A stretch of 64,000 bases of DNA from a virus (IMGVR_UViG_3300050821_005814:42806-106805); one strand, 5' to 3'. Counted from the first letter of the stretch, positions 2,987 through 56,876 are shown. A program made the numbers and translations. Notes: a model not told the origin generated them from the letters alone.

Positions 2987-4318
2987 TCATCCTGCCAATT
3001 TCTCCCAAACGCCAAGACCACCACGCTTGGTAATATACCCGTCAAGCGAGTAACCGACCGCATCCCACCCATGGTTGTGCGCGTCGACTACTATCGGCAG
3101 TATCAGCGGCTGCTTTGTGACTGGATCAATACGCTTCTCGTCAGTCTTGTAGGAATAGAGCCTCGCCTCCTGCGCCATACCGACGCAGCGCTCGTGAATG
3201 TGAATCTTGCCAAAGCCCTTCAGGTGCGAGATGCGGTCTTCAACGCACCCCTGCCACTTGAGTGCAGCAGACATGTTGATGCCTTGCCGCAATACATAGC
3301 TGATCGTCTCCGGCCGCGCGTTGTCCGCCTTCACCGGCCAGTCAGTGATACCAGGAATGCCCTCGTACTGCATGCCGCTGATTGGTGCGCGGCCGCCCTT
3401 CAGCGCGTAGGGGATGTCTTCCAACTCAACGCCAACGCCGAAGAACTCATGCGTGATCCACAAGTCGTTGTTGTGGATGTAGCTGCGTATGCCGCACAGC
3501 GGATCGTTCGCAAAGCCAAAGTCGACGCCGTAGAAGTACTTGTCGACGATCTCAGGTTCCTCGAACCCTTCGATCGCATAGCGGTCCTTGAAGATAGCTG
3601 CTGACGAAATATGCCGGCACATACCCTCCCACACCCAGTCGTACGCGTCTGCGTCTGTCAGCATCATTTGCTTGCGCAGACGATTGAGCGACTCAGGGAA
3701 CCATGGATTGTCCTGCCAGCCTACCTTCTCGACGAGTGCGTCTGTCGAATGACCTGTGACAAACGTCGCATACATGTAGTCGTCGGGATCAACGGCATTG
3801 AAGCTGATCCAAATCTCCGGGTTGATACCGCCACGCTCGCCTCTGATCGTTGGGTCGAGGAGCAGCATGGACTCGCGTGATGTCGTCTGCCCTTCCTCAA
3901 TCCAGCAAATCGTCACACCTTCAAGCGATCGTATCTCAGCGATGTTACGCTTGAGTCCGCGGAAGATGAACTCACTACCCGTCAGCTTGCATCGTATCGT
4001 GCGGTCGGTGATCTCGAAGAACGCTGCTAGTCCGAGTGCGCGTATCTGACCTGCAATGACACGATGCACGCTGTCAGCGATACTCGTCTGGAACTCACGC
4101 GTGCAGAGTATCAAATGTTTCTGCACCATCGCACGCCCAATTGCCGCACGTGCAAATGATCGGCTCTTAGCCCCGCCTCGACCGCCCCAGGCGACCCGAT
4201 ATCTTACCGCCTCACCCGCGTCGGTCGTGCTCGCGGATAACAGCTTGCGAAAGCGCGGCGGGAAGCGGATGCGAAGAGGACCAGGACCTTCTGAATCTGT
4301 GAGAGCGTCGAGAGGCAT
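2987..4318 (-). CDS. terL: Terminase large subunit (PBSX/Terminase_3 type)
   Basis: Walker A GGRGGAKS, CTREFQxSIxDS, WIEEGQ Walker B, nuclease GVDFGFANDP and HNHGWDAVGY. Confidence 0.95.
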   Translation of the reverse strand: MPLDALTDSEGPGPLRIRFPPRFRKLLSASTTDAGEAVRYRVAWGGRGGAKSRSFARAAIGRAMVQKHLILCTREFQTSIADSVHRVIAGQIRALGLAAFFEITDRTIRCKLTGSEFIFRGLKRNIAEIRSLEGVTICWIEEGQTTSRESMLLLDPTIRGERGGINPEIWISFNAVDPDDYMYATFVTGHSTDALVEKVGWQDNPWFPESLNRLRKQMMLTDADAYDWVWEGMCRHISSAAIFKDRYAIEGFEEPEIVDKYFYGVDFGFANDPLCGIRSYIHNNDLWITHEFFGVGVELEDIPYALKGGRAPISGMQYEGIPGITDWPVKADNARPETISYVLRQGINMSAALKWQGCVEDRISHLKGFGKIHIHERCVGMAQEARLYSYKTDEKRIDPVTKQPLILPIVVDAHNHGWDAVGYSLDGYITKRGGLGVWEKLAG

Positions 4319-11469: not shown

Positions 11470-11961
11470 ATGGCAGAGAAGGCGACTCTCGATGAACTGA
11501 TAGCGGCGCTGTCTCAGCGCGACGCGCTCAGGATCCATAAGCAGCTCCTTCATCGATTCGATGCCAAGCAAGGCAAGGTCGCCCCATTCACATCACAGGA
11601 AGACGACTTCTACACGGCCCTGCACCGCGTGATGAATGGGCGGTTGTTGCCAAAGCTTGAGCTCGCGACGCACAAGAAAATCCATGGGCGGAACGGTTAC
11701 AAGCGTGCGGCTACGCAGCTATTCACGACGTTGAAGAATGGTAGTGACGGTACGCTGCGGCGGCCGCAAATGCTGGCGCTTGCCTACGAGGCGCTTAGCT
11801 GTCTTGCGGAGGCGATGGAGGAATGGGGCATCCCTGTCTCCGCCGCCAACTTGATTATGCAGATCGACAACAACCTTGAGCATGCCCTTAACGAAGCGTA
11901 CCCGGGGTATCTCGAGAACCGCATGTTGCACTACCTAGCTCCGATGCTCGAGGCTGCATAG
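11470..11961 (+). CDS. Hypothetical protein, first gene of the rightward unit
   Basis: AGGA RBS, ATG at 11470. Confidence 0.65.
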   Translation: MAEKATLDELIAALSQRDALRIHKQLLHRFDAKQGKVAPFTSQEDDFYTALHRVMNGRLLPKLELATHKKIHGRNGYKRAATQLFTTLKNGSDGTLRRPQMLALAYEALSCLAEAMEEWGIPVSAANLIMQIDNNLEHALNEAYPGYLENRMLHYLAPMLEAA

Positions 11962-15471: not shown

Positions 15472-16236
15472 ATGGCTGAAATGATCACCTCGAATCGCGC
15501 TGGCCCCCTCGCTAAGCGCGTATTGCTCTACTCAGGCGGCATGGATAGCGTCTGCTTTGACAACCTGCTCTTGCCTGACGTTTGCCTGTATGTGCGCAAC
15601 AAAGCGCCCTATGCTGCATGCGAAGACTACTGCGTCGAGAAACTCGAGGCGCAGGACAAGATCAAAGGTGAGCTTGTGACACTCGATGCCAATGTGCTCG
15701 ATCTCTCGCAATGGGAGCGCGATGACGCAATCGTGCCCAACCGCAATGCGCATCTCGTCCTACTCGCAAGCAACTATGGCGACCAGATCTATCTCAGTTC
15801 GGTCTATGGCGATCGATCCAACGACAAGGATGAGAAGTTCTACCGCCTGATGGAAATGCTACTCGGGCATATGTGGGATGAGCAGCATTGGACAAAGCGC
15901 CGGCGCTTCCGTATCTCAAGTCCCTTCAAGATGTGGACGAAATCAACGCTTGTCGACCGCTACTTGTCTCGCGGAGGTGACCACCTTGCGCTGCTGACAT
16001 CCTACTCCTGCTACCGCGGGCAACCCAAGCATTGCGGCATCTGCAAGCCTTGCTTCCGCAAACGCGTCGCGCTCGAGAACAACTATATCGAAGTGCCGCG
16101 GGGTTACTTCGAGGATGACTTCTGGCGCCAAGACTGGTTTCATGAACTGCTGCCGCGCATGCAGGAAGGCAAGTATCGAGGCGATGAGGACAAGGATGTA
16201 CTCAAGTTCCTGCGGCTAAGGAATTTGCTTGCATAG
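15472..16236 (+). CDS. queC: 7-cyano-7-deazaguanine synthase
   Basis: PP-loop LLYSGGMDS, VPNRN, SYSCY...HCGICKPC zinc site. Confidence 0.9.
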   Translation: MAEMITSNRAGPLAKRVLLYSGGMDSVCFDNLLLPDVCLYVRNKAPYAACEDYCVEKLEAQDKIKGELVTLDANVLDLSQWERDDAIVPNRNAHLVLLASNYGDQIYLSSVYGDRSNDKDEKFYRLMEMLLGHMWDEQHWTKRRRFRISSPFKMWTKSTLVDRYLSRGGDHLALLTSYSCYRGQPKHCGICKPCFRKRVALENNYIEVPRGYFEDDFWRQDWFHELLPRMQEGKYRGDEDKDVLKFLRLRNLLA

Positions 16237-16285
16237 CGCTGCGCATAGCTACTAGCTTGCGCAGCCTAATGGGAGAACAGTAATC
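16234..16285 (+). repeat. Outlier hairpin plus AATGGGAGAAC element related to the 47-55 kb array
   Basis: gctgcgca...tgcgcagc stem right after the queC stop, then aatgggagaac and ATG. Confidence 0.5.
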
Positions 16286-16516
16286 ATGGTTGCGAGCGTA
16301 AGCTCAATTGAGGCAGTCGTACGCATAGTGCGAAAGCATGTCTCAGATGAGAAGTTTCAGGTCATCGTGTCTGAGTTGATCGATGTGCCTGGTAATGCAT
16401 CGTTCCGCGAGTCGGTCATGCGCCTCGCCGACCTTGCTAACATTGGGCTTGATGGGCGGCCAACGCATGTGCGGCAGATCCGCAAGCGCGTGCGGCTTGT
16501 GCGGGTGAAGCTATGA
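16286..16516 (+). CDS. Hypothetical protein
   Basis: GGGAG RBS; VPGNASFR. Confidence 0.55.
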   Translation: MVASVSSIEAVVRIVRKHVSDEKFQVIVSELIDVPGNASFRESVMRLADLANIGLDGRPTHVRQIRKRVRLVRVKL

Positions 16517-44133: not shown

Positions 44134-44503
44134 CTGGCTCTATCGTTGCTACCACTGTGATCAAGTCTTCAAACGCGAGGCAGCAGCCATCCACTTCGGC
44201 ATGCATGAGCTTGACGCGCCTGCATGCAAGCTTGCTGCTGATCTGCCTGGCCTCATAGAGCTACTGCGCAGTAAGGATGCAGAGCTTGCGCAAATGCGGC
44301 GGGAGGACAGTCCAACGCATCGACAGTTCTATGAGCTAGGCTCCCAGTACACGCGCGATGTGACTGCTGCGCAGGAACAAGGTTACAACAAAGCGCTGCG
44401 CGATCTCGAGAACGGCGACCTTGAGAAAGCGCATGCAGCGCGCGTGCTCCCAGGCATCATCAAGGCGCTGACCAGCAATGCCGATCTCCAAGAAAGCGAT
44501 TGA
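44117..44503 (+). CDS. Hypothetical Zn-finger/coiled-coil protein
   Basis: RCYHC..F....AA.HFG...PAC. Confidence 0.55.
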   Translation: MTEKANWLYRCYHCDQVFKREAAAIHFGMHELDAPACKLAADLPGLIELLRSKDAELAQMRREDSPTHRQFYELGSQYTRDVTAAQEQGYNKALRDLENGDLEKAHAARVLPGIIKALTSNADLQESD

Positions 44504-46157
44504 GGCGTTCCTAACGAAGCCGCTGCCTCATCTGCCCAAATTCAAAGGCGCGGACGAGGCAGCGCTTATGCGCCTGATCTACGACTCGACAGGACAACCC
44601 TACGCACCAATCACAACCCCCCGCAAGCATCAGCTTGATGGCGTTGCATTTGCGCTGTATCAGCGCCGCGCTGTGCTGCAATACGACCCTCGGTTGGGCA
44701 AGACAAAGATGGCGCTCGACTGGGCTATGCACCTGCGCAAAGCCAATCTCTGGCGGGCAGGCAAGAAGGGGCTTGTCATCGCGCATTCGCCTGTCGGGTT
44801 GTCAGTATGGAAGCATGAGATCGCGAAGCACTCCAATCTATCAGCATGCTATGTGCAGAACGATGTGCAAGAGTTCATCGACGCGCTAGCAACGGATGTC
44901 GACCTCATCGTGCTACCTTGGTCTGGCTTGCAGGCAATCTTCTCCGAGAAACGCCTAGCGCAGCGGGGACGACGCGCGGGGAAGCCTAAACTTTACCCCT
45001 TCTATGCAGCGCTGCACATTGCGGCGGAGGAGTTCGGGCTCGTCATTGCGGACGAGATCCACATGTGCAACAACCATATGTCGCTGCGTTTCAAGATCGC
45101 TGCCAAGATCATTGAGGGGTGCCGCTTTCGCTTGGGACTGACTGGCACACCAATCGGCCGCAACAAGCTTGCGATATGGCCGTCCAGCTATCTCCTAGAT
45201 GAAGGAGCAGCGCTCAGCGCAAGCTACCCATTTTTCGAGGCTGCTTTCAGCGCGCGCAAGAAGAACTGGTTCGGGCGGCACAAAGGGCTGTTCAAAAACG
45301 AGAAGACTGGCGTTGAGACCTGGGCCAACTACGACTACGTGTTTGACAATGACAAGCTACCGCTCCTGCAGGCGAAGCTTGCCACCCTAGCGATCAGCTA
45401 CAAGCTGAAGGAGGTACGCGCTGTTGATGTGCGGCCTGATGTCATCGAGCTGACCATGTCGCTTGAACAGGCGGAGGCGTACAACGAGGTCGTGCAGCGT
45501 GCACGCATGATTCACAGCGGAGATGTGCATGAGATTCAGAACTCGTTTGTGCGCTTGCGGCAGATCTCGTCGGGGTTCATACCCTTCACGGACAGCGATG
45601 GTAAGCAGCATATGCGGCAGTTCACGCACCCGTCGAAGGTTGAGTGGCTGTCGGACTTGCTCGAGAAGATAGACCCTGACTTAGCGCTCATCATCTTTCA
45701 TGAGTTCACGGAGTCAGGGGACCGCATATGCGGACTGCTCGAGGCTGCTAAGATCAAGCATGCATGGTTCTACGGCGGCACAAAGGACAAGGACGCGATT
45801 GGCAAGTTTCAGCGCGGCGACATCAACGTGCTTGTCGCTAACACGGCGAAAGGCGGCATGTCAATTGACTTACATCGCGCTGACTACATGTTGTTTTATG
45901 AGAGTCCCGTCAGTCCCATCACACGCACGCAAGCCGAGGCGCGTCCGCTAGCTGAGCAGCGCGGCAAGCGTCCTCTGATTATTGACGACCTCGTCTGTTC
46001 ACCAATCGAACGCAGAGTGCGTGAGCTCGTACGTGAAGGTAAGAACGCGCTCAAAGCATTGACGAGTGCACCGCGCAGTTGGGAGATGCTTGACCTGCAT
46101 GCATTAGGCAAAAAGAAACCCCCAGGCCGTAAAGCCCAGGGGCGCTTGCCGCTTTAG
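44478..46157 (+). CDS. SNF2-like SF2 helicase
   Basis: RLGKT, ADEIH, LTGTP, RLRQI, QAEAR. Confidence 0.9.
   Translation: MPISKKAIEAFLTKPLPHLPKFKGADEAALMRLIYDSTGQPYAPITTPRKHQLDGVAFALYQRRAVLQYDPRLGKTKMALDWAMHLRKANLWRAGKKGLVIAHSPVGLSVWKHEIAKHSNLSACYVQNDVQEFIDALATDVDLIVLPWSGLQAIFSEKRLAQRGRRAGKPKLYPFYAALHIAAEEFGLVIADEIHMCNNHMSLRFKIAAKIIEGCRFRLGLTGTPIGRNKLAIWPSSYLLDEGAALSASYPFFEAAFSARKKNWFGRHKGLFKNEKTGVETWANYDYVFDNDKLPLLQAKLATLAISYKLKEVRAVDVRPDVIELTMSLEQAEAYNEVVQRARMIHSGDVHEIQNSFVRLRQISSGFIPFTDSDGKQHMRQFTHPSKVEWLSDLLEKIDPDLALIIFHEFTESGDRICGLLEAAKIKHAWFYGGTKDKDAIGKFQRGDINVLVANTAKGGMSIDLHRADYMLFYESPVSPITRTQAEARPLAEQRGKRPLIIDDLVCSPIERRVRELVREGKNALKALTSAPRSWEMLDLHALGKKKPPGRKAQGRLPL
46111..46147 (-). 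terminator. Rho-independent terminator for the minus-strand gene 46154-46360
   Basis: ccccaggc/gcccagggg stem; aaaagaaa on + gives a U-tract on -. Confidence 0.6.
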
Positions 46158-46360
46158 CCGTAGATCGCTACCGCTATCTCGTCCGTGAGCAACATCTCTT
46201 CTTGCTGCGCAGAAGCGGGTACGCGCTGCTGAAGCAATGCTAGGACTGCGTTTGCATTGTTGATGTTGCCAACGTCGACCATTGCCTCATATGCAGCAAT
46301 CAACGCGTAGCGTGGCTGATCGTTCTCGTCGCGCGCAGGCGCGAACTCTGCAACTTGCAT
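46154..46360 (-). CDS. Hypothetical protein, divergent from the array
   Basis: AGGAG RBS before MQVAEF. Confidence 0.6.
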   Translation of the reverse strand: MQVAEFAPARDENDQPRYALIAAYEAMVDVGNINNANAVLALLQQRVPASAQQEEMLLTDEIAVAIYG

Positions 46361-46620
46361 AGCTGATTCTCCTGACAAAGAGCGGGGACACGACATTGCG
46401 TCCAACAGCATGCTAGCAGTCCCGCAGCAGCGTAGCGTTGCTCATTGCGCATCGCTGAAAAATTGGTCTGTAATAGCTGCCCTAATAGGCATATGCACGG
46501 GCATATGCAGGGAAATTGCGCTGCGCAAAACTGTGGGGGGTTTGGCTAGTTTTAGCTAGCGCAACGCTGCGAGCCAAAAGTGCGCCGTTCCGCCTAGGCG
46601 GAAGCGCAATGACCCCCTAC

Positions 46621-46633
46621 TAACCCCTTGAAA
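46621..46633 (+). promoter_or_regulatory. IHF-binding-site-like motif
   Basis: TAACCCCTTGAAA vs consensus YAANNNNTTGATW (1 mismatch), in an AT-richer non-coding stretch. Confidence 0.35.
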
Positions 46634-47170
46634 TCGTAGTGGGTTTTTATCTAGTAGTCAGATCTGCGCGCAGATAGTATATTTATGTCAATCCCCTAGC
46701 TAAATAACAGCCTAAAGAGGGGGAATGAGGCAGCGCTAGCTGCTCGCGGGGTCCGACCCCCCGCCCCCATTCCCAGCGGTCAACGGACTAGCTAAGCGCT
46801 GCTTAGCTGCTCCCCACCAGGACCCCTTAGCGCAGCGCAGCGCGGGATTGGGGAATGGGTGACGGAGTACCTGACGAGGACCTCTTGCTTCGGTGCGCTG
46901 ACGTCTGCACCAGCAACGGGACCAGCCGGACCGCCGTGACAGACATGAGTCGGCAGCGTGCAGTATCCTAGTAGCTTCTAGGCAACGAAATGCATGCGAC
47001 GGTGCGCATAGCGCAGCGCGAGTCCCCTTAGCTAGCAGCAATGCAGCGGGAGTGGGGTAGCGCTAAGCGCGGGACTACGCGCCTTAGCATAGCAGGACGG
47101 ACCACACGCTCGGTTTGGGACTCATGCTGGGTGCAAACATAAAGTTCTCTCTCATTGTTCTACTGATGAA

Positions 47171-47244
47171 AGCGTCAATGCTTTTGCATATGCCTCTAGC
47201 GCCGCAGCGCGGGATTAGGCGATATATGCAATTGCATTGACGCT
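47171..47244 (+). other. Long imperfect hairpin in the array leader
   Basis: agcgtcaatgc/gcattgacgct, ttgcatat/atatgcaa, gcct/aggc. Confidence 0.7.
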
Positions 47245-47304
47245 ATGCAGCTATAGCACCTTACGCTGCACTGATGATTCCTGGTGCACAATGGGAGAAC
47301 AAAT

Positions 47305-47646
47305 ATGCTCAAAGCGAAGCGCGTGACGATCGAACGTGACCATCGCGCTAACGGCTACATTGCTGGCTGGAACGGCCGCGTCCCAGGCGACGATCACCCG
47401 GAGTATTTGGAGGGACACAAGCAAGGCGTTGCAGCAGCGAAAAGAGCAAATGACGTCGAAACGTTCGCTGCGCGTACGAGAAAGCATCATAAGGACGTGC
47501 GTGCTGCTGCTAAAGCGCTACGCGACGCTGCGCCTGACCTTGCTAATGCTTTACGACTCGCAAGGGAATTGGCATGCACAGCTGGCGGCTTGCGGCACGA
47601 CCAAATTGACTCATTGCTCGCGCATATGATTCTATACGGCTACTAA
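47305..47646 (+). CDS. Array gene, hypothetical
   Basis: CAATGGGAGAAC-aaat-ATG. Confidence 0.7.
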   Translation: MLKAKRVTIERDHRANGYIAGWNGRVPGDDHPEYLEGHKQGVAAAKRANDVETFAARTRKHHKDVRAAAKALRDAAPDLANALRLARELACTAGGLRHDQIDSLLAHMILYGY

Positions 47647-47715
47647 CGCGTACAGATGCAGCGCATTGCGCTGCATTTGCCTGCGCTAGTGCAGGATACA
47701 ATGGGAGAACAAAAT

Positions 47716-48240
47716 ATGGCTTACAAAGCACGGAAGCTTACGCGCGCTGAGATGACTGCAAAGGAGAACGCAGCGCTTGCAGAGGCGGGTATGGCTATTG
47801 ACGCTGCGAACAGCAACCCAGACACGACGAACGTTCAACGCTATCAGCTCGCGTCGCGCATCCTTTGGATCCAAGGGGCGCACAAGTATGTGTTCCCTAG
47901 CCAACTGATGCTTAGTGCTGCGCATGCGGACAAAGCGAAGTACCAAGCCGACTTTGACGTATATGCTCATGCCGAGGGCGTCAAGCATGCGCGGTCTTAT
48001 GCGCTGGGCGGTGCAAATAGGTATCTCGAGAAAATGAAGAAGCATGCCGAGCGATTGATCGAAGACCTCAACCGCTATCAAGTGCAGCTCAACGCAGACA
48101 ACAACGATAACGTCGACCGGTCCGATCGCTTCGGCTGGGCGGTCAATGAGATCGAAAACTTCTGCCGCAACGTTGGCTACAGCGAAGCAACGCGCATTTG
48201 CGCTACGCTTGCAAAGGCTTTTGACCGCAAAGACGACTAA
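47716..48240 (+). CDS. Array gene, hypothetical
   Basis: Start after the conserved RBS. Confidence 0.75.
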   Translation: MAYKARKLTRAEMTAKENAALAEAGMAIDAANSNPDTTNVQRYQLASRILWIQGAHKYVFPSQLMLSAAHADKAKYQADFDVYAHAEGVKHARSYALGGANRYLEKMKKHAERLIEDLNRYQVQLNADNNDNVDRSDRFGWAVNEIENFCRNVGYSEATRICATLAKAFDRKDD

Positions 48241-48308
48241 CGCGTATGGATGCAGCGTTCGCTCACGCTGCATTCACCTGCGCTAGTGCAGGCAATGGGA
48301 GAACTCAA

Positions 48309-48539
48309 ATGGTTGAAGTTGAAATGATCGGCCGCGCACTCAAGCTTGGCGACAAGCTGAGCAATGGGGCGGTCGTCATGGCATATCGCGACGTAAGCTT
48401 TGATCGGCGCATAGTGCTCGCGCTGTTCCGTCGCACTGAGTATGTCACGTGGCGGCTTGACTATGACAACAACCCCTGGGGCGGACACTACTTCGAGGGC
48501 GACCTCGTCGCCGCTGCCATGGACTTTCTCAGCCGCTGA
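48309..48539 (+). CDS. Array gene, hypothetical (YVTW...WGGHYF)
   Basis: Start after the conserved RBS. Confidence 0.7.
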   Translation: MVEVEMIGRALKLGDKLSNGAVVMAYRDVSFDRRIVLALFRRTEYVTWRLDYDNNPWGGHYFEGDLVAAAMDFLSR

Positions 48540-48552
48540 AGGAGTATGCGCT

Positions 48553-48828
48553 ATGGTTGGAACACGCTTTGAAATCACGGATCTCGACCTTGGCGAGGCT
48601 GCTTACTTCGAGCTCGCGTGCAAGACGCATATGCAGCGCAGCACGTTCGGCACAAGGGAAGCGCTCGTCGCGCTGATCGCTATTGCGCAAGGTAAGCAAG
48701 TCTCCGACGCCGTCCGCAACGATGCGATCAATGCCGCTAGTGCGGTCATCGTACAAAAAGGTTGCGAGGAGATGGGTGAGGGGTTGTCCTACCTGACGGA
48801 CAACATCGACGTCATAATTTACGGCTGA
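48553..48828 (+). CDS. Array gene, second in its unit, hypothetical
   Basis: AAGGAG RBS; stop forms the start of an element. Confidence 0.65.
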   Translation: MVGTRFEITDLDLGEAAYFELACKTHMQRSTFGTREALVALIAIAQGKQVSDAVRNDAINAASAVIVQKGCEEMGEGLSYLTDNIDVIIYG

Positions 48829-48900
48829 CCCTGATGGATGCAGCATAAGGAGATGCTGCATTTACCTAGGCCAGACCTGGGATACAATGGGAGAACGAAT

Positions 48901-49140
48901 ATGAAGGTAAAGTACACGATCACTGCTGAAGTGATGGTCGACATCATGCCAGACGACGACAACAAGGTGCCGCCAAAAGTGCTTCGCAAAGTGCCATCGC
49001 AACTCAAGCATGAGTTGCGGTACACGCTGCAAGAAGACGATCAGCTGTCCAACAGCTTGCTCGATACACTCGGGCATGTCATTCGACTCAAGGTCAAGCG
49101 ATTGGCCGTCGACCAATCCGGACCATTATGGATCCGCTAA
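48901..49140 (+). CDS. Array gene, hypothetical
   Basis: Start after the conserved RBS. Confidence 0.7.
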   Translation: MKVKYTITAEVMVDIMPDDDNKVPPKVLRKVPSQLKHELRYTLQEDDQLSNSLLDTLGHVIRLKVKRLAVDQSGPLWIR

Positions 49141-49215
49141 GTAACTAGCTTGGATGGAAGCAGCGCCAATGCGCTGCTTCTACCTGCGCTAGTGCAGGGC
49201 AATGGGAGAACGAAT

Positions 49216-49563
49216 ATGAAGATCGATCCGACGACCACGCGCCGCATACTTCGGGTTGGCGATATCGTCATGGTCCGCAGCGCGCATACGAACAAGGTGC
49301 TGAAGACGATGAAAATTGATCGCGTCAGCAAGGCGCAAAAGCGCGTGCATCTCGAAGGTCAGCATGCAGACATTGCGTTTTACTACCAGCAAGGCAGCAT
49401 GCACTACAGGCAAAACCCCGGTTCGGGTTTGGCTGGTAGCTTTCTCAACGACTACTTTTGCATCGATGATGTCAAGTCCGGTCCCGGCTATATCGAAGCC
49501 GAAGGCGATGACGGCTCGAAGCTGTTTATCAACAGCAATGGCGATGTACGCGGTATCTTCTGA
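49216..49563 (+). CDS. Array gene, hypothetical
   Basis: Start after the conserved RBS. Confidence 0.7.
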   Translation: MKIDPTTTRRILRVGDIVMVRSAHTNKVLKTMKIDRVSKAQKRVHLEGQHADIAFYYQQGSMHYRQNPGSGLAGSFLNDYFCIDDVKSGPGYIEAEGDDGSKLFINSNGDVRGIF

Positions 49564-49641
49564 CCCTGATGGATGCAGCGCTCGAAGCGCTGCATCTACC
49601 TAGGCCAGCATGGCGTAGGGTATCACAATGGGAGAACTTAC

Positions 49642-50379
49642 ATGGCACTTAACGACAAGATCCGCAAGCTCATGGCACTGGCGACGCACCCTGGCAGCAA
49701 TGCGCAGGAGGCGGCCGCTGCTGCCGCAATGGCTGCAGAGCTTGCGCTCAAGTACAACATCGACCTCGAAAGCGTCTCGCAGGAGACGACAAAGCAGGCC
49801 AAGGTGTTCATGCGCGGTAACACTGCATTCAAGGTGTCGCCGCGTGACCGGTCCGCTGGCTTTGCCATACAGCATGGTATCGCCAAGCTGTATGGTGTGA
49901 AGCCTGCATACCACTATGACGGCAGTCAAAATCATATGTGGTACATTGGACAGGAGCACAACGTTGCTGTTGCCAATAGCTGGTCGGAATACCTTTGGAA
50001 CGCGTGCCTCAAGGCCAACGTCGAGTACAGCCGGCGGCGCATATACGATAGCGCGAAGGAACGCTATCGCGCGGACCAGACCTTCCGTCTGACCTTCTCG
50101 CGTGAAGTATGCTCGCGTCTCGAAGAGAAGCAGCAGCGCATGAAGGACACTGGCGTATCATCGACTGGCACGGCGCTCGTCGTTGTCAATTGGTATGAGG
50201 CTGAGCGCAAGGAGATCCAAGCTTGGGTCGACAATACTATGAAAATGAAGACGACGACCTCGAAGGCAAAGCGCATTGACTCGGGCGCTGCGCTTGCGGG
50301 GCACGAAGCTGGTCGTCGCGTTGGTCTGCATGACCAGCTCGCCGGCCGGGCGCAACCTACAATGCGCCGCATAGCCTAA
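49642..50379 (+). CDS. DUF2786-domain protein
   Basis: DKIRKLMALA......EAAAA...A..L..KYNID; C-terminal AG..AG..V.L. Confidence 0.8.
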   Translation: MALNDKIRKLMALATHPGSNAQEAAAAAAMAAELALKYNIDLESVSQETTKQAKVFMRGNTAFKVSPRDRSAGFAIQHGIAKLYGVKPAYHYDGSQNHMWYIGQEHNVAVANSWSEYLWNACLKANVEYSRRRIYDSAKERYRADQTFRLTFSREVCSRLEEKQQRMKDTGVSSTGTALVVVNWYEAERKEIQAWVDNTMKMKTTTSKAKRIDSGAALAGHEAGRRVGLHDQLAGRAQPTMRRIA

Positions 50380-50459
50380 CCTGTAGGGAAGCAACGCAGC
50401 GCTCAGCGTTGCTTCTCCCTGGGTTAGTTAGTCCAGGGTAACGCAATGGGAGAACTTAG

Positions 50460-51344
50460 ATGACACTAGAACTTAGAGATCCGCAAGTCCGCGCTGAGCT
50501 GTTCGCAATGCGCTGGGCGAGCGAGTCCGCTGCAAAGCAGTGGCTTCGTCGGCAGGGTGCCAATGCTGAGGCATTGACAACCAACGGGCTGATCGTTGGA
50601 ATGGCGCCTGACAACGGCGTCTGCCTGCAGGAGCAGGTTACTGCTGTGAAAGGGACCATCCCGCAGGCGGCAAAGGCAAAGGAGCGCAGCGCTGCAACGC
50701 GCCGTGCTCTCGAGCTGGACGCTGCGACGGGTAAGGGGAAGGTCGCGGACATCGATGACAAGGTCGCAGCGCATGAGAAAGCGGATGCGGCGGGTGATAT
50801 CGAGGATGCGCGGCCGAAGGTTCCCCAAACACTCGTCGACGGGGACACACCACTCCCTGACACGGAGTCGCTGCTCGCGCGGGACACGTCTGGGCGCGTA
50901 ATGATCAATCGGTCGCATGAGGCGTTCATTCGCCTGCCGACAATGGGACCGAAAGACAAGCTTCGCTCCTGGGCGGCATACTACGCCGCTTACCTGCGCA
51001 CTGTCATTGACGTGTGCGATGTCGAGACAGGCGCATTGATCGAACGCTTCAACGGTCGCGGTGCGACAGTACGTCCGCCATCGACCAGCAAGCCGCGCGT
51101 GTCCATGACCAATGGTACTGGTCGCGGCCGCAGGGCGAGCAGCGCTGCACTGAGTCCCTTGCAACTCAAGTGGATTGAGCTTGCGTCGCGTCCAGATGGC
51201 GCCAAGCGCACCGAGCTCACGTCTGCCAATGAGGGCACTGTCCTCAATTGGAAGGGTGTGCTCGAATCGCTTGGTAAGAAGCGCGGCCTGTCGCTGACGG
51301 TCACAAAGGCGCAGGGTGAGACGCCTGTATACAAGCTAGCCTAA
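50460..51344 (+). CDS. Array gene, hypothetical, possible C-terminal DNA-binding domain
   Basis: 294-aa ORF bounded by two elements. Confidence 0.7.
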   Translation: MTLELRDPQVRAELFAMRWASESAAKQWLRRQGANAEALTTNGLIVGMAPDNGVCLQEQVTAVKGTIPQAAKAKERSAATRRALELDAATGKGKVADIDDKVAAHEKADAAGDIEDARPKVPQTLVDGDTPLPDTESLLARDTSGRVMINRSHEAFIRLPTMGPKDKLRSWAAYYAAYLRTVIDVCDVETGALIERFNGRGATVRPPSTSKPRVSMTNGTGRGRRASSAALSPLQLKWIELASRPDGAKRTELTSANEGTVLNWKGVLESLGKKRGLSLTVTKAQGETPVYKLA

Positions 51345-51420
51345 CCTGTAGGGAAGCAGCATGGTAGCGCATGCTGCTTCTCCCTGGGTTAGACCTGGGA
51401 TGACCAATGGGAGAACGAAT

Positions 51421-51747
51421 ATGGCTAGCAGTTCATATATAGGCGAAGAGTACGCCGATCATGTCGCAGTACCTGCTTGTATCAGGCATGACGAAGAGCT
51501 TTGCTGGCACTATGCAGAGCTCGCCGCAGAGATCTTCTTTCGCGGTACGATGCCTCAGTACGATGATGCTGCGTACTGGCGGTATAGCGCAAGCTGTTAC
51601 TTGCCTGAAAACCAGCCGCAGTACCGCAACAGCATGCCTCCTCCTCCTCCAAGCGAGGATGACGCATTTGACATGACCTACGACGATTGCATCGAGGAAG
51701 CTGAAAAGATTGAGTGCGGCTTTGTCGGCGGCGAGGAGATGGTGTGA
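51421..51747 (+). CDS. Array gene, acidic hypothetical protein
   Basis: Start after the conserved RBS; D/E-rich. Confidence 0.65.
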   Translation: MASSSYIGEEYADHVAVPACIRHDEELCWHYAELAAEIFFRGTMPQYDDAAYWRYSASCYLPENQPQYRNSMPPPPPSEDDAFDMTYDDCIEEAEKIECGFVGGEEMV

Positions 51748-51893
51748 TGTCTGACCACGAAATAGTCGAGATGCTCATGCTACTCGGCAAGATCGTATGG
51801 AGCGTCGCTGGGATCGCTGCCGGTGCCTTTAGCATCTTCGCTAATGGCGTCGTCATTTGGCGCATCATGACCGGCAAACGTCTCTGGACCTGA
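51747..51893 (+). CDS. Small membrane protein (48 aa)
   Basis: Manual translation MSDHEIVEMLMLLGKIVWSVAGIAAGAFSIFANGVVIWRIMTGKRLWT; its TGA starts an element. Confidence 0.6.
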   Translation: MSDHEIVEMLMLLGKIVWSVAGIAAGAFSIFANGVVIWRIMTGKRLWT

Positions 51894-51966
51894 CCCTGAT
51901 GGATGCAGCGCAAGCGCGCTGCATCTACCTAGGCCAGTCGCTTAGGACAACAATGGGAGAACGAAT

Positions 51967-52302
51967 ATGGTACCGACTATCAGACTAATGGTCATGCGCA
52001 GCGGTACGCGCTACTTCATCTACAACCGAGGCATGACATTCGTCATGCAGCGCGCGGATGGGTCGCAGGCTGCGCTCGGCCTGATCACGCATGAACCCGT
52101 CATGTTCATGTTCGCGCTGGAAGACGCGCTGCTGTCCAAGGACAACCCCAGCGGCATGGCGATGAAAGCAGCAAAAGCGTTCCTCGGCGAGGACTGCAAG
52201 ATCAACCTTATCCACACTGTCACGAAGCCGATCGAGGATAAGGATCCCGCGATTGAGCTCGAGGCGGCGGGGATCAACCTGACGGAGGCGCATGTGTCAT
52301 GA
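51967..52302 (+). CDS. Array gene, hypothetical
   Basis: Start after the conserved RBS. Confidence 0.7.
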   Translation: MVPTIRLMVMRSGTRYFIYNRGMTFVMQRADGSQAALGLITHEPVMFMFALEDALLSKDNPSGMAMKAAKAFLGEDCKINLIHTVTKPIEDKDPAIELEAAGINLTEAHVS

Positions 52303-52685
52303 AGCGCTATAGCATTCTAATGGTATGCGGCTTGGTTGTTGCGCTTGCTTTTGCGTACGTGCACGGTGCTTTAGCTGATGGATTGCTCACAGCATTCATC
52401 GGCGCAGTATGCGGCATGTACGTTGGCAGTTGGGCATTCCAGCGCTGGGGCGACCCCAAGCTCATGCGGGACTGGGATCGTGTCAGCAACCGCAATTGGT
52501 CGCTTGCGCAAGCAAGTCAAGCAATGTTCGACGCAGGTATCGGCGAGCCTTATGCTGATGCTGAGCACGATATGATCGACCTGCTGCGGGGACACGTGAC
52601 CCTGCCCGAGTTGATCGAGGTGATGCGTATATTACACAACGCATGGGGTCACCGCTTCCTGCATGATCTCGTGACGGGCGACTAA
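52299..52685 (+). CDS. Two-TM membrane protein
   Basis: Two N-terminal hydrophobic helices. Confidence 0.65.
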   Translation: MKRYSILMVCGLVVALAFAYVHGALADGLLTAFIGAVCGMYVGSWAFQRWGDPKLMRDWDRVSNRNWSLAQASQAMFDAGIGEPYADAEHDMIDLLRGHVTLPELIEVMRILHNAWGHRFLHDLVTGD

Positions 52686-52754
52686 CGCGTACGGTTGCAG
52701 CGCTTGTCAGCGCTGCACTCGCCTGCGCTAGTGCAGGACAATGGGAGAACAAAT

Positions 52755-53420
52755 ATGGTACGCATACTATCGGTTGACTGGGACTTCTTCGTCGAGGAAG
52801 ACCCCATGCTTGACTATGGGCATCGCGAAGTAAGCCTGTTCCTCGAGATGATCTGGCATACGCGTCGCCAAGGGTACCTATGGGACCCAGCGACGCAAAC
52901 GGCCGAACCCATTCGACGTGACCTGACAAAGCTCCTGCCGTTCCGCGGCGACCCAGCGTTTCTGCAAGTGGCAGCTATGCGCTGGCACAACTACGACGTT
53001 GCGGTCGCTGAGTCACACCTGACAATCTTACAGATGATTGGGCAGCGGACCGATCTCGAGATCATCAACGTCGACGCGCATCACGACATTCACTATGGTA
53101 CCTTGCCCAAAGATGATGTCGTGCATTGCGGCAATTGGGGCGCTCACCTCATGCAGCAAAATCGCGTGCGCTCCTGGACGCAGATCTACCCGGAGTGGCG
53201 TCAGAAGTACAAGGAGACGTTTCCCCGGACATGGGCAAAGAAGCACTGCCCCAAAGTGGCCGTAAAGTTTGGCGAGCAGCGCATTCCATGGCGCGATGTC
53301 GACGCTGTCTTCATCTGCCGCTCAGGGTGCTGGACGCCGCCTGAGTACGATGTGCGCTTCAATGCGTTCACTGAGGCGATGGGTTCTAGCTACAAACTAC
53401 CTGAACGCGCGATCGAGTGA
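52755..53420 (+). CDS. Arginase/deacetylase-fold metal-binding protein (UPF0489-like)
   Basis: ILSVDWDFF, AESH, INVDAHHD, HCGNW, FICRSGCWTPP. Confidence 0.65.
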   Translation: MVRILSVDWDFFVEEDPMLDYGHREVSLFLEMIWHTRRQGYLWDPATQTAEPIRRDLTKLLPFRGDPAFLQVAAMRWHNYDVAVAESHLTILQMIGQRTDLEIINVDAHHDIHYGTLPKDDVVHCGNWGAHLMQQNRVRSWTQIYPEWRQKYKETFPRTWAKKHCPKVAVKFGEQRIPWRDVDAVFICRSGCWTPPEYDVRFNAFTEAMGSSYKLPERAIE

Positions 53421-53507
53421 CCTGCGAGGGAAGCAGCATGCATGCATGCATGCTGCTTCTCCCTGGGCCATAGTGGTCACCAGGGTTAGCAATGGGAGAA
53501 CTTAGTT

Positions 53508-54575
53508 ATGTCACACGAACTAGCTCAGACAGCCGATGGGCGTGATGCAATGGCATATGTCGGGCGTGCGCCTTGGCATAAGCTCGGGCAGAAGCTTGAG
53601 GCTGGTGCGAGCAAGGAGGAGTGGTGCAAAGCGGCAGGCTTCGACTTCCAGTATCTCGTGGACACAGTGCGCTTCGAACACAATGGAGCGCAGCACGAGA
53701 TGCCAAGTCGCCTCGTCATCTACCGCGGCGATACCTTGGCGCCGATGTCGATCGTGAGCAATCAGTTCAAGATCGTTCAGCCAAGTGACGTCATGGCCTA
53801 CTTCGACTCACTCGCGACACGTGCAGGGTTTCAGCTCGAAACGGCTGGGCTGCTGTTCGGCGGCAAGCAACTCTGGGCGCTTGCCAACATCGGCGACGAA
53901 AAGGCGGTCGCATCGGCAAAGGATCGGATCAAGGGGCGGTTGCTCATGGCAACAAGCGTTGACCTGTCACTGCCGACAACGCTCAAGTTCCTTGCGGAGC
54001 GCGTTGTCTGTCACAACACGCTATCGTATGGGATGAGAGAAGGCGGCGGGACGACAGTGCGTGTCCGTCATCGCACGACCTTCCGTCCGGATGAGGTCAA
54101 CGAGCAGCTAGGCATCACAATGCAGAGCGGCTTCGATGAAGCGATGGAAGACTTCCGCCGCTTGGCTGACACGCCGATGAACGACATCGAGATGATCGAG
54201 GCGACGATTGCGCTGCATGATCCGTCCGCGATGGACAAGGATCCGGACGAGCTCATGCAGCTACTTCACAACCACAAGCCCATCCAGCGGATCGGCGAGT
54301 TGTCAATCGGCGAGGAGGCTATCGGGTCGGAGTTACCGGGAGCTGCTGGTACGGCGTGGGGATGGTTGAACGCTGTCACGCAATACTATGATCACGAGCG
54401 GAACGCGCGGTCGGATGACTTCCGCCTGTCGCGCACTTGGTTTGGCGATGGCGATCGCATGAAGTCGCGTGCGTTCGAGATTGCTATGATGACAGCGAAT
54501 GGCGATGAGTCATACAAGCATGACTTCCAAGCCAGCGGCGGCGCATTGCTTGACGCAGTGCTCGCAGCTACCTAA
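53508..54575 (+). CDS. DUF932 (TIGR03299-like phage/plasmid) protein
   Basis: PWHKLG, IVS..FK.VQP, ETAG.L.GGK..WALA, RVVCHNTL, GTAWG.LNAVT.Y.DH. Confidence 0.9.
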   Translation: MSHELAQTADGRDAMAYVGRAPWHKLGQKLEAGASKEEWCKAAGFDFQYLVDTVRFEHNGAQHEMPSRLVIYRGDTLAPMSIVSNQFKIVQPSDVMAYFDSLATRAGFQLETAGLLFGGKQLWALANIGDEKAVASAKDRIKGRLLMATSVDLSLPTTLKFLAERVVCHNTLSYGMREGGGTTVRVRHRTTFRPDEVNEQLGITMQSGFDEAMEDFRRLADTPMNDIEMIEATIALHDPSAMDKDPDELMQLLHNHKPIQRIGELSIGEEAIGSELPGAAGTAWGWLNAVTQYYDHERNARSDDFRLSRTWFGDGDRMKSRAFEIAMMTANGDESYKHDFQASGGALLDAVLAAT

Positions 54576-54641
54576 CGCGTATGGATGCAGCGTTTCGCGC
54601 TGCATCTACCTGCGCTAGGGCAGGATAATGGGAGAACTCAA

Positions 54642-54947
54642 ATGGCTAATCTTACGAAGCAAGAAGCGAGCGTGCTTGCTGGGATGTTTGCTGTGACCAA
54701 CATGGGTCAACGGTGCCCAAGCAAGGAGCTCATACTGCGCGCAAAGCGCAGCGGGCTGAACGATGCCAACTCAATTGCGTGCATGTTCGCCGTGGAGTAC
54801 ATGGAAACCGTTGCTGACGAGAAAGCTTGGACGCAAGAGACGCGCTATTGGCAGCGGGAGCTCAGCAAAATGACCATGGAGAAAGTCGCTGAGATATGGC
54901 CAGACAATGCGAAAGCATATGCGGAGGCTGTAGCCGCGAACGCCTGA
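54642..54947 (+). CDS. Array gene, hypothetical
   Basis: Start after the conserved RBS. Confidence 0.7.
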   Translation: MANLTKQEASVLAGMFAVTNMGQRCPSKELILRAKRSGLNDANSIACMFAVEYMETVADEKAWTQETRYWQRELSKMTMEKVAEIWPDNAKAYAEAVAANA

Positions 54948-55030
54948 CCTGCGAGGGAAGCAGCATGCATGCATGCTGCTTCTCCCTGGGCCAGATGGTT
55001 TACCAGGGGCACAACAATGGGAGAACGAAT

Positions 55031-55261
55031 ATGAGTACGCGAGTAGAAATCGTACTGGGGATCAACCTGACACTCGCATTGCAGCGGGTAGATCATCCGA
55101 TCCGCGGTGCGCTGCCTGTCATCGCACTCTACACCTACAGTGCTAACGGCAACATCGAACAGCGGATCGATCTCGTAGGCGCGCGTAGCTTGCGGGATAC
55201 GCTTGATGCCTTGATCAAGGACATCGAGCACGATCAAAAGCTTGAGATGGAGCGCGTATAA
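55031..55261 (+). CDS. Array gene, hypothetical
   Basis: Start after the conserved RBS. Confidence 0.65.
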   Translation: MSTRVEIVLGINLTLALQRVDHPIRGALPVIALYTYSANGNIEQRIDLVGARSLRDTLDALIKDIEHDQKLEMERV

Positions 55262-55441
55262 ATGGGAAAAATTCGTATGCGCACCAGCACAGCAGTCAAT
55301 TTGGTCAAGCGCGGTATCCGTGACGGTCTCACGAACGACGAGATCCGCGCGCTGCCGCAATTCAAGCGGCTTGAGGCCGATTGGAAGTACCGCGTCAACG
55401 ACAAGCAAATTGATCGCTTGCGCGGCCTCAACGTCGACTGA
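55262..55441 (+). CDS. Small basic protein (59 aa)
   Basis: Manual translation MGKIRMRTSTAVNLVKRGIRDG...; its TGA starts an element. Confidence 0.55.
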   Translation: MGKIRMRTSTAVNLVKRGIRDGLTNDEIRALPQFKRLEADWKYRVNDKQIDRLRGLNVD

Positions 55442-55517
55442 CCTTGATGGAAGCAGCGGCAATGCCGCTGCTTCTACCTCGGCCAGAGTGGACGAGGGTT
55501 ACAATGGGAGAACTCAA

Positions 55518-55706
55518 ATGCACTATGCAATTCGTTACTGGCGCGGCGATGCGAAGCACCCCACAGCAAAGGGGTCGAATGTCATCTCAGCGGAGAATCA
55601 GGAGGCAGCGGAGGCGCTTGCTGAAAAGATGATCCGCGGGATGGAGCGCTTCACGCGCCTGGCTGAAGGAACGATCAGCTACATCGTCGCGCCGGTCAGC
55701 GGCTGA
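55518..55706 (+). CDS. Array gene, hypothetical
   Basis: Start after the conserved RBS. Confidence 0.65.
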   Translation: MHYAIRYWRGDAKHPTAKGSNVISAENQEAAEALAEKMIRGMERFTRLAEGTISYIVAPVSG

Positions 55707-55719
55707 GGGGGATAGAGCA

Positions 55720-56049
55720 ATGTCCGAGGCAGTCGCACTGCGTAAGCAGGACCAGCGCCCCGACTACATCAAGCAGGTCTTCTTTGGTAAGGAGGACCTG
55801 CGCGTCGGGGACCAGCTCGCATACTGGGGCGTCCTTGACCCTGGGTCGCGCTGGCGCATCACGCAGATCACATCCTACCGCATGAAGACAACGAAGTCTG
55901 GTAAGCTTCGCTACGACCGGCAGCATCCGCGGGTAGCGCGCTTCCTGCGCGATGACCTGCATCTCGTCAACATCGCGAACGGAGATACGCACACGGTTAC
56001 ATTCGCCTATGTGCGCTACTCCGCGATATGGTGGGCGGTACCTAAGTAG
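55720..56049 (+). CDS. Last array gene, hypothetical
   Basis: GAGGGGG RBS; followed by a terminator. Confidence 0.65.
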   Translation: MSEAVALRKQDQRPDYIKQVFFGKEDLRVGDQLAYWGVLDPGSRWRITQITSYRMKTTKSGKLRYDRQHPRVARFLRDDLHLVNIANGDTHTVTFAYVRYSAIWWAVPK

Positions 56050-56050
56050 A

Positions 56051-56083
56051 GGGAGCTGAGTGTTTGCACCCAGCTCCTTTTCT
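56051..56083 (+). terminator. Rho-independent terminator closing the array
   Basis: ggagctg...cagctcc plus ttttct at the convergent junction. Confidence 0.8.
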
Positions 56084-56084
56084 G

Positions 56085-56876
56085 TCACGCAGCTAACGCG
56101 CTCATCGAGCGCTGCAACATCGCCATATCGACATCTGCAGGATCCAGCCCCGACGGGCCGAAGAACGCCGGATCGAGCACCATGTAAATCTCGTCGACGC
56201 TTTGCGTAGCGAATGACTCATCATACCGCCACATCCCATCCCATGTCTCGACATCGAAGTAGGTCTTCCCCGCGACCTCCTCACAATCGAGCACGAGGAA
56301 CTCGTGTCCGCCGATGTAGGGGTTGCCTGCGACCCACATAAAGTTTGAGTCGACATTCGCTTGCGTCAACTGCGCGCCGACCATAAGAGGTCCAAGCGAT
56401 AGCGCTTGCTTGACGGCATCCAGGTTCTTGTGATTGACACGCGTCGCGCCTTTCAGGAAGTTGCGCTGACCTGCAATCACGAGGCCGGTCTTGGTCCAGT
56501 ACTCAAGGAGACCTCCTGGACCAGCGACGACCGTCCCATTGTCTGTCGGGTTGCTACCATCCTGCTGCGTCTGCGCTGGATCATACCCTGTGATCGCGGA
56601 GTACTCGCCAACAGCCTCGTCATCTGTCGGATCGATGTCAATGCTTGTCGTGTAGGCGAGCGCTGTCTGCACGTAGTGGAATGCTGTGCAGATCACGCAG
56701 TTGCCGATGATGTTGTTGCGCAGGATGGGGATACCCTTCGCAGGCGTATGCGCGCGCCAGTTCGTGCTCTTGCCTGGCGCAAAGCTTACAGGCAGCAGGC
56801 GCTCCAATCGCGCAATGCGGCGATCATCGACCGCATCCTGCTTCCCAAGCATGCGTGTTACATTGGACTGACTCAT
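56085..56876 (-). CDS. Papain-like (C1-type) cysteine peptidase
   Basis: NNIIGNCV catalytic Cys, Y.AITGYDP...TDNG, GGHEF, ETW. Confidence 0.7.
   Translation of the reverse strand: MSQSNVTRMLGKQDAVDDRRIARLERLLPVSFAPGKSTNWRAHTPAKGIPILRNNIIGNCVICTAFHYVQTALAYTTSIDIDPTDDEAVGEYSAITGYDPAQTQQDGSNPTDNGTVVAGPGGLLEYWTKTGLVIAGQRNFLKGATRVNHKNLDAVKQALSLGPLMVGAQLTQANVDSNFMWVAGNPYIGGHEFLVLDCEEVAGKTYFDVETWDGMWRYDESFATQSVDEIYMVLDPAFFGPSGLDPADVDMAMLQRSMSALAA

Follow-up and report, generated by a model that had tools for sequence, protein, structure and literature searches.

A bistable, stop-codon-anchored intercistronic RNA in the small-gene array of a 106.8-kb phage

The gene array and its repeated elements

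The DNA analysed here, referred to as the window, is a stretch of 64,000 nucleotides (nt; IMGVR_UViG_3300050821_005814:42806-106805) that takes up the right-hand part of a virus record of 106.8 kb, rated complete (100%) by CheckV. It codes for terminase, baseplate and tail-fibre proteins, a family A DNA polymerase, ribonucleotide reductase, and DnaB-like and SNF2 helicases, and no close cultured phage was found, the top polymerase identity being 30%. Downstream of the SNF2 helicase gene (44478-46157) lies a co-oriented array of ~19 small genes on the + strand (47305..56049), mostly without known family, and 13 of its 18 junctions bear a repeated element which is an uncatalogued, bistable, stop-codon-anchored intercistronic RNA. 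Between the helicase gene and the array are a divergent gene of 85 amino acids (aa; 46154-46411, minus strand) and a non-coding leader of ~880 nt (46412..47289, + strand), which fits no open reading frame (ORF), has one sigma-70-like site (46655-46683) and is presumed to be the promoter region of the array. Families could be assigned to only two array genes, DUF2786+DUF7168 (49642-50379, + strand) and DUF932 (53508-54575, + strand), both of which are typical of early or leading-region accessory sets. Comparison of the array DNA with 50,697 phage records, near and distant, gave zero matches.

All 13 elements reported in the initial annotation were located on the + strand, each with a hairpin of ~22 bp, and each runs in the order stop codon, outer stem, internal loop, inner hairpin (H1), alternative hairpin (H2), ribosome-binding site (RBS) box and ATG, with the motif C-TAA-C or C-TGA-C present in 11 of the 13 copies. 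The four interleaved subfamilies and the single hybrid were also as described. Subfamily A comprises element 1 (47642..47718; R1 81.8 bits), in which a TAA stop codon is combined with a UA/CC loop, a 12-bp H1 and an H2 at 47680-47695, together with element 2 (48236..48311; 85.5 bits), element 9 (52681..52757; 84.9 bits) and element 11 (54571..54644; 82.0 bits), where the base A-U pair is replaced by an extra C-G pair. Subfamily B is formed by element 3 (48824..48903; 82.6 bits), which has TGA as its stop codon, element 5 (49559..49644; 79.6 bits), element 8 (51889..51969; 80.8 bits) and element 13 (55437..55520; 78.8 bits), whose H2 reads CCUCG../..CGAGG. Elements 6 (50375..50462; 75.9 bits) and 7 (51340..51423; 79.7 bits) make up subfamily C, and elements 10 (53416..53510; 65.5 bits) and 12 (54943..55033; 78.2 bits) subfamily D. 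The A/B hybrid is element 4 (49144..49218; 80.2 bits), and this copy had been placed at 49137 as though it began at the preceding stop codon; its fold in fact starts 7 nt downstream of the true TAA at 49138-49140. In the two subfamily D copies H1 is tipped by an (ATGC)n run (53430-53460 and 54957-54983), a palindromic tetranucleotide repeat in which slippage can lengthen the stem, and the run in element 12 is shorter than that in element 10 by exactly one unit.

The RBS box AATGGGAGAAC occurs in 15 exact copies and one copy with a single mismatch, against 0.56 expected, and 4-7 nt after every exact copy an ORF of 62-355 codons starts with ATG. Thirteen of the exact boxes stand behind a two-state hairpin, where the spacing to the ATG is 4-6 nt rather than the 4-7 nt first given; a spacing of 7 nt is found only at the separate copy at 16268. 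This copy (16230..16288, + strand) lies behind an unrelated 8-bp hairpin, GCUGCGCA..UGCGCAGC, and before a gene for 76 aa in the replication module. The remaining exact box, with the ATG of the first array gene (47305-47646), lies at 47290..47307 (+ strand) and has no two-state hairpin upstream. At a further hairpin-less junction (55259-55280) a degenerate box, AAATGGGAAAAAT, overlaps the upstream stop codon and precedes a gene for 53 aa. Scanning for the box beyond this phage returned only single chance matches.

Two alternative folds conserved in six phages

In an alignment of the 13 window copies, the long hairpin consists of seven counted outer pairs, a 2x2 loop with (U/G)A opposite CC, and a 12-pair inner stem. 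Standard pairs form in 95.9% of its cells compared with 28-50% when the partners are slid, changes on both sides occur at 8 of the 19 pairs, and the fold z-scores of -3.3 to -5.1 place the copies 3.3-5.1 standard deviations below shuffled sequences. The compensatory changes that had been claimed were recovered in this alignment: column pair 4-54, where TAA faces ..TAG and TGA faces ..CAG, is AU in seven copies and GC in six, the alternation of gatgc/gcatc with gaagc/gcttc gives UA in seven and AU in six, and the change from actaac/gctagt to cctaac/gctagg is seen in the 54572 copy.

A second hairpin, H2, was found in all 13 copies, beginning at an invariant CC directly after the inner stem. The 5' strand of H2 is the 3' strand of the outer stem, and because both structures need this same strand, the long hairpin and H2 are mutually exclusive. 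When each state was enforced, the energies of the two differed by -6.7 to +3.2 kcal/mol across the 13 copies, with subfamily A near zero (0.2 kcal/mol in element 1) and the two-hairpin form favoured in most B and D copies (by 6.7 kcal/mol in element 5). The mean probability that the Shine-Dalgarno (SD) sequence is unpaired was 0.53, with low values in a few copies; the two states leave the RBS open to much the same extent, and the conserved fold is predicted to bring no systematic sequestration of it. Two further arrangements were considered and set aside. A pseudoknot holding the outer pairs and H2 together is sterically unlikely, with an H2 loop of 5-6 nt and a linker of 1 nt, and an anti-SD role for the 3' arm of H1 fails because its complementarity to the box is confined to subfamilies C and D and absent from relatives.

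The wider distribution of the element was examined with a covariance model built from the 13 copies and run on the loci of helicase homologues, 80 of them from IMG/VR and 78 from metagenomes; when IMG/VR was scanned with the helicase protein alone, no match was obtained. The model found five copies in L121, a complete 112.8-kb IMG/VR phage, and three in L142, in both cases within an array just downstream of an SNF2 helicase 45-47% identical to that of the window. Scanning for the inner-stem pattern added four more IMG/VR contigs from three further phages, with 3 to ~10 copies each, two of these contigs (L282 and L288) belonging to one record. The metagenome loci contributed only one weak look-alike (L278). 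In total the family has about 60 copies on seven contigs from six phages, five of them besides the window phage.

The best copies from the seven contigs were combined in a 38-copy alignment. Here 96.3% of cells pair, against 34-44% in slid controls, 16 of the 19 pairs show changes on both sides, and no shuffle matches any of the pairing measures. The long state has 8 + 2 + 12-15 bp in every one of the 38 copies, H1 alone accounting for 12-15 bp. Likewise, H2 is present in 36 of the 38, with a mean folding free energy (dG) of -7.7 compared with -3.2 for shuffled tails, and its first five pairs, counted by our own script, form in 97.7% of cells, the fourth pair occurring as GC, AU, CG and UA. 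The copy at L288:8167 combines G for A12, U for C47 and, in the H2 partner, A for G, so that both states are preserved. Outside the helices three features are conserved: the inner stem has at its base an A facing a C (A12 and C47, nearly invariant), the outer stem has another A x C mismatch, and the stop codon is held in a CTRAC motif. The H1 loop, of 3-14 nt or more, is constrained neither in sequence nor in length. What is under selection, as had been suggested, is structure rather than sequence, with compensatory changes in this phage and in five others.

No Rfam family matched the window at the gathering score, no ribozyme matched at E<=10 over 46400-56400, and none of the arrays bearing the element contained any Rfam family, which agrees with the earlier view that no known analogue obviously matches it. 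G.U pairs are frequent (33 of 38 copies at column pair 9-72 and 15 at 14-68), and the reverse strand scores ~50 bits lower with the covariance model; because of this pairing and this deficit, the element is read as acting as RNA, on the mRNA strand.

The RBS box is a different matter. It differs by phage, with ..AGGAGACU.. or ..CAGAGGACACC.. in relatives that keep the fold, and because relatives keep the fold with boxes of their own, CAATGGGAGAAC is the standard RBS of this phage and lies outside the conserved fold; the initial annotation had counted it as the tail of the element. A 12-nt box that is invariant in 15 copies goes beyond the needs of Shine-Dalgarno pairing, and with each relative carrying its own version it might be an operator for a phage-encoded RNA-binding protein that represses or activates translation, or for a dedicated endonuclease of the Cas6/Csy4 kind, reading the hairpin, the box or both. 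The SAS/ESAS sequences of mycobacteriophages offer a precedent, itself of unknown function. Against this, a single protein would not account for both a fold that is conserved across phages and a box that differs among them, recombination alone can keep paralogous copies identical, and no candidate protein was found, with no RegB, dsRBD or RNase III detected and most array proteins without family. We consider such an operator quite improbable.

Arrays of the six phages have almost no genes in common, and none is shared with the window array at E<1e-5. An element common to arrays of such different content, with its four subfamilies interleaved, could be a DNA-level device in which ~80-bp repeated boundaries drive homologous or site-specific cassette exchange, and because each copy brings its own stop codon and RBS, any ORF between two copies would be expressed. 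However, the G.U pairs and the strand asymmetry of the scores point to RNA, no tyrosine recombinase gene is present in the complete genome and no consistent PeSL-type promoter in the elements, and exchange would be a by-product of any repeated sequence. A DNA-level function is thus highly improbable in our view. The gene-shuffling role proposed at the outset is supported only indirectly: the arrays do differ in genes while the element is kept, but that difference does not show exchange to be caused by the element. The other half of that proposal, a modular expression signal between accessory genes, is supported.

The stop codon occupies a fixed register in the fold. Columns 3-5 hold, in 35 of the 38 copies, a stop triplet at the end of an open frame of 44 codons or more; in 34 of the 38 (the 49144 hybrid excluded) this is the real upstream stop, which elsewhere lies 5-7 nt upstream. 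From the first base of this triplet to the start of the inner hairpin the distance is 9-10 nt in every copy. The CTGAC motif is also retained in the L121 copy at 11809, which has no gene directly upstream. The distance from stop codon to ATG is 66-87 nt, in frames 0, 1 and 2 and with in-frame stops, and this rules out read-through or fusion of neighbouring genes; the same frames, together with the covariation, rule out the element as coding sequence.

Other signals at these loci were recorded alongside the element. Leaders between the helicase region and the array are also found in L121 (11549-11875, 327 nt) and L142 (11648-12354, 707 nt), and these two have in common a promoter-like block, AACGnTTTCAAnGACTTAG ... 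TTGnnn-N17/18-TATAnn, and strong folding. The 880-nt window leader contains many GCGCAGCGC and TAGC repeats. The motif GGGTATATTG (one mismatch or fewer) occurs seven times in the window, against 1.3 expected, at 3031, 10542, 11961, 14926, 16869, 17706 and 25089; all copies of this promoter-like motif are within the 3-25 kb part and none is inside the array, which makes it a candidate promoter element for middle or late genes. The idea that GGGAGA serves a T7-like RNA polymerase as promoter was rejected, as no such polymerase was detected (in a search without positive control) and the sequences upstream of GGGAGA differ between subfamilies. Homologues of the DUF932 protein recur in the arrays of many relatives (L148, with 47% identity, L192, L187, L156 and L166), which marks these arrays as an accessory or anti-defence-type region.

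Punctuation of the message and its possible mechanism

In more distant relatives, whose helicases are 27-29% identical to that of the window, the array downstream of the helicase is punctuated by type II hammerheads. Rfam models gave 29 matches in five loci, with 4-12 per locus, and these also served as the positive control for our hammerhead search in the window. In most hammerhead copies the closing strand begins 1-6 nt after the upstream stop codon and a AAUGGAGA-type RBS follows the other closing strand, so that the unit reads stop codon, closing helix, hairpin, cut site, hairpin and RBS, which is the plan of the present element at the equivalent position. In L194, L197 and L196 the RBS after each hammerhead, AAUGGAGA(A/G), resembles the AAUGGGAGAAC of the window phage, and an extended early-gene RBS may, from this resemblance, be common to this large phage group.

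An element with the niche and layout of the type II hammerheads of related phages, lying outside all Rfam families and having A12 opposite C47 nearly invariant, might itself be a new class of self-cleaving ribozyme that stands in place of the hammerhead. Twister-sister, pistol and hatchet were reportedly found in such contexts by Weinberg and co-workers in 2015. None of the Rfam models for twister, twister-sister, pistol, hatchet, HDV-like or hairpin ribozymes matched, and, as for the hammerhead itself, CUGAUGG occurs in subfamily B only and no GAAA lies between the hairpins. Furthermore, the element has almost no conserved unpaired nucleotides, its H1 loop is free, A.C is its sole conserved position outside Watson-Crick pairing, and the A.C becomes G.U in one copy, as expected of a plain wobble pair and not of a catalytic residue. 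There is no conserved pseudoknot partner, the H2 loop and linker cannot also hold the outer pairs, and the long regular helices are unlike those of known small ribozymes. Self-cleavage therefore appears very improbable.

Other relatives have other units at these junctions. In L175 (14398-19990), L158 and L159 every syntenic junction consists of a G+C-rich hairpin and a T-run with TCTAGGAGGA ~20 nt later, which is terminator-type punctuation of the same kind of array. The use of a hairpin and T-run at the same junctions, together with the strength of the intergenic hairpins in the window, raises the idea that the present elements are transcription terminators or attenuators that grade operon expression. 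No T-run follows H1 or H2 in any copy, though, thirteen terminators in series would silence the distal genes, and H1 is present in both states and cannot be toggled by the switch; we judge this explanation to be extremely unlikely. A third arrangement, a distinct sequence family with the same two-hairpin plan, is seen in L164 (13036-18210 of IMGVR_UViG_3300021420_000001), L269 and L166. In L164, nine junctions have two hairpins before an invariant CAUAGGAGAGAG RBS, with no Rfam match, and at six of the nine RNAfold adds an outer stem of 5-7 bp across a 2x2 loop (AA/CA or CA/CA) that overlaps the second hairpin. The first L164 copy retains CUGAUGA, and units of this type may, on this sequence trace, be decayed hammerheads.

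We conclude with high confidence that the element of the window is an RNA-level intercistronic punctuation cassette. As to how it works, the reading we prefer, with moderate confidence, is that it is a processing site in a polycistronic mRNA, the long state being cut by a host RNase III-type enzyme and the hairpins capping both resulting ends. During transcription the strand that holds the stop codon would pair with the 3' strand of the outer stem, and the 12-bp H1 would thereby grow into a helix of at least 22 bp whose only break is the A.C/U.C loop. A host double-strand-specific endonuclease of the RNase III type would then cut at or near this loop. Once the RNA is cut, or once a terminating ribosome has displaced the strand with the stop codon, the freed 3' strand could form H2 with the sequence downstream of it. 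The upstream message would thus end in H1, as a block to 3' exonucleases, and the downstream message would start with H2, as a block to 5'-end-dependent decay, with an RBS a few bases on that is not systematically sequestered.

RNase III processing is favoured because at least 22 bp are conserved (H1 alone being shorter), because the loop lies at the expected cut site, and because H2 begins exactly where the 3' product would. The element shares with T7-type RNase III sites a stem of ~20 bp or more, an internal loop at the presumed cut site and an intercistronic position, and its 13 junctions lie in one co-oriented array without an internal promoter motif. Several observations count against processing by RNase III. 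RNase III, dsRBD, RegB and RtcB genes are all lacking from the phage genome; the two-hairpin state of B and D copies is up to 6.7 kcal/mol more stable, which would leave the long helix only transient; the long form of the L164-type units is only about 16-18 bp, short for an E. coli-type RNase III; and a strict stop-codon register is not needed by a plain RNase III site and hints at a role for the ribosome.

This last point bears on an explanation without obligatory cleavage, in which the element would be a translation-gated switch or insulator. With a stop codon in the A site, the geometry of the ribosomal mRNA channel is such that the outer stem would be opened and the inner hairpin, starting roughly at the channel mouth, only abutted. 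A terminating ribosome would therefore melt only the outer stem and flip the RNA to H1 and H2, H1 would stop the released ribosome from sliding, each gene would be translated from its own standard RBS, and the two folds would set local RNA stability according to upstream translation. Such a switch would fit the stop codon at the same columns in 34 of 38 copies from six phages with H1 9-10 nt downstream, the support from covariation for both states, which are near-isoenergetic, and the similar stop-to-hairpin register of the hammerhead cassettes, and as the variable stop-to-ATG distance (66-87 nt; frames 0, 1 and 2) excludes direct coupling, initiation would have to be de novo. On the other hand, the RBS is about as open in one state as in the other, leaving no obvious difference in output, CTGAC is kept in the L121 11809 copy that lacks a gene directly upstream, and the positional replacement of ribozymes argues for cutting as the shared function. 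We regard a switch of this kind, though it is the leading alternative, as unlikely.

The element could also be an RNA switch operated by the ribosome, such that termination at the stop codon within the outer stem turns a nuclease-sensitive 22-bp helix into a resistant pair of hairpins. This is a tentative suggestion that we consider somewhat unlikely. If true, cutting and decay at each boundary would be set by translation of the upstream gene, and phages would have evolved, in parallel to hammerhead cassettes or out of them, a portable insulator that needs no protein.

The purpose of hammerheads between small phage genes has been an open question since 2011, and a 2019 review still lists their function as open. 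Here a non-ribozyme RNA fills the hammerhead slot in related phages with the same layout, which argues by analogy that the selected function may be punctuation of the message (to cut, cap both ends and restart translation) and not ribozyme chemistry as such. The evidence for two conserved alternative folds and a fixed stop register is unusually clear, and the hammerhead and two-state arrays form a matched pair for experimental comparison. A portable boundary would make any inserted ORF expressible, which fits the differing gene content of the arrays. If it works as proposed, the element would be a natural, compact intercistronic insulator of ~80 nt, of possible use in operon design, and a possible marker for accessory or anti-defence gene arrays in viral metagenomes.

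Comparison with known systems

Among the systems to which the initial annotation had likened the elements, integron attC sites and the PeSL elements of T4-type phages proved the poorer analogues. As in attC, imperfect inverted repeats surround single-gene cassettes and structure is kept more than sequence. The attC site acts as folded single-stranded DNA with the IntI recombinase, unlike the present element, whose G.U-dependent pairing fits RNA and whose genome has no tyrosine recombinase (PF00589), and an attC-like mechanism is not supported. PeSL elements, reportedly described by Arbiol, Comeau and Krisch in 2010, are said to be mobile regulatory cassettes carrying a sigma-70 early promoter. 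They resemble the present array in having a repeated stem-loop and expression signal between small early genes, in hyperplastic regions of variable gene content, but the elements here carry no consistent sigma-70 promoter: a sigma-70-like match was found in one of the 13 (48861-48888), with seven in the region against 6.2 by chance, and the likeness fails at this point.

Of the analogies first named, that to the RNase III signals of T7 early mRNA (R0.3-R1.3) is the best, and it is strengthened by the hammerheads at equivalent positions in relatives. These signals are the classical precedent, with similar sites in Bacillus phage SP82, and in T7 the upstream message is stabilised by the hairpin that remains at its 3' end. 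Like them, the present elements lie between the cistrons of a polycistronic early transcript, in several related copies, as hairpins that span about two helical turns and contain an internal loop. Unlike in T7, the stop codon is built into the helix in a constant register, an alternative hairpin competes for the 3' strand and the unit continues into a standard RBS box; the sequences are not homologous, and cleavage is here only predicted.

Type II hammerheads (RF02276; PMC3088659) are likewise arranged after a homologous helicase in the same order of stop codon, closing helix, two hairpins and RBS, with one unit per one or two genes, before ORFan and anti-restriction-type genes. Clusters of hammerheads flanking single prophage genes were described by Perreault et al. 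2011 (PMC3088659), who found that ~2-kb transcripts were cut in vitro and proposed a role in the processing of polycistronic phage RNA. The present element differs in having no CUGANGA or GAAA core and no Rfam match even at E<=10, and in that its closing helix competes with the second hairpin and encloses no three-way junction.

The SAS of Cluster K mycobacteriophages is a 13-bp box, GGGATAGGAGCCC, 3-8 bp before start codons, and in a subset an imperfect inverted repeat with a 4-13 bp spacer, the ESAS, lies just upstream, both being of unknown function (Pope et al. 2011, PMC3203893). As with SAS, the window phage has an asymmetric conserved box of ~12-13 bp a few bases before the starts of many non-structural genes, and an inverted repeat upstream of 13 of 15 boxes recalls ESAS, by analogy only. 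The box here is CAATGGGAGAAC and not GGGATAGGAGCCC, host phylum and phage type differ, and neither the anchoring on a stop codon nor a two-state fold has been described for ESAS. The element belongs to none of the hammerheads, SAS/ESAS or T7 RNase III sites. In layout, the closest systems are the hammerhead arrays and SAS/ESAS, and in likely mechanism the RNase III sites of T7.

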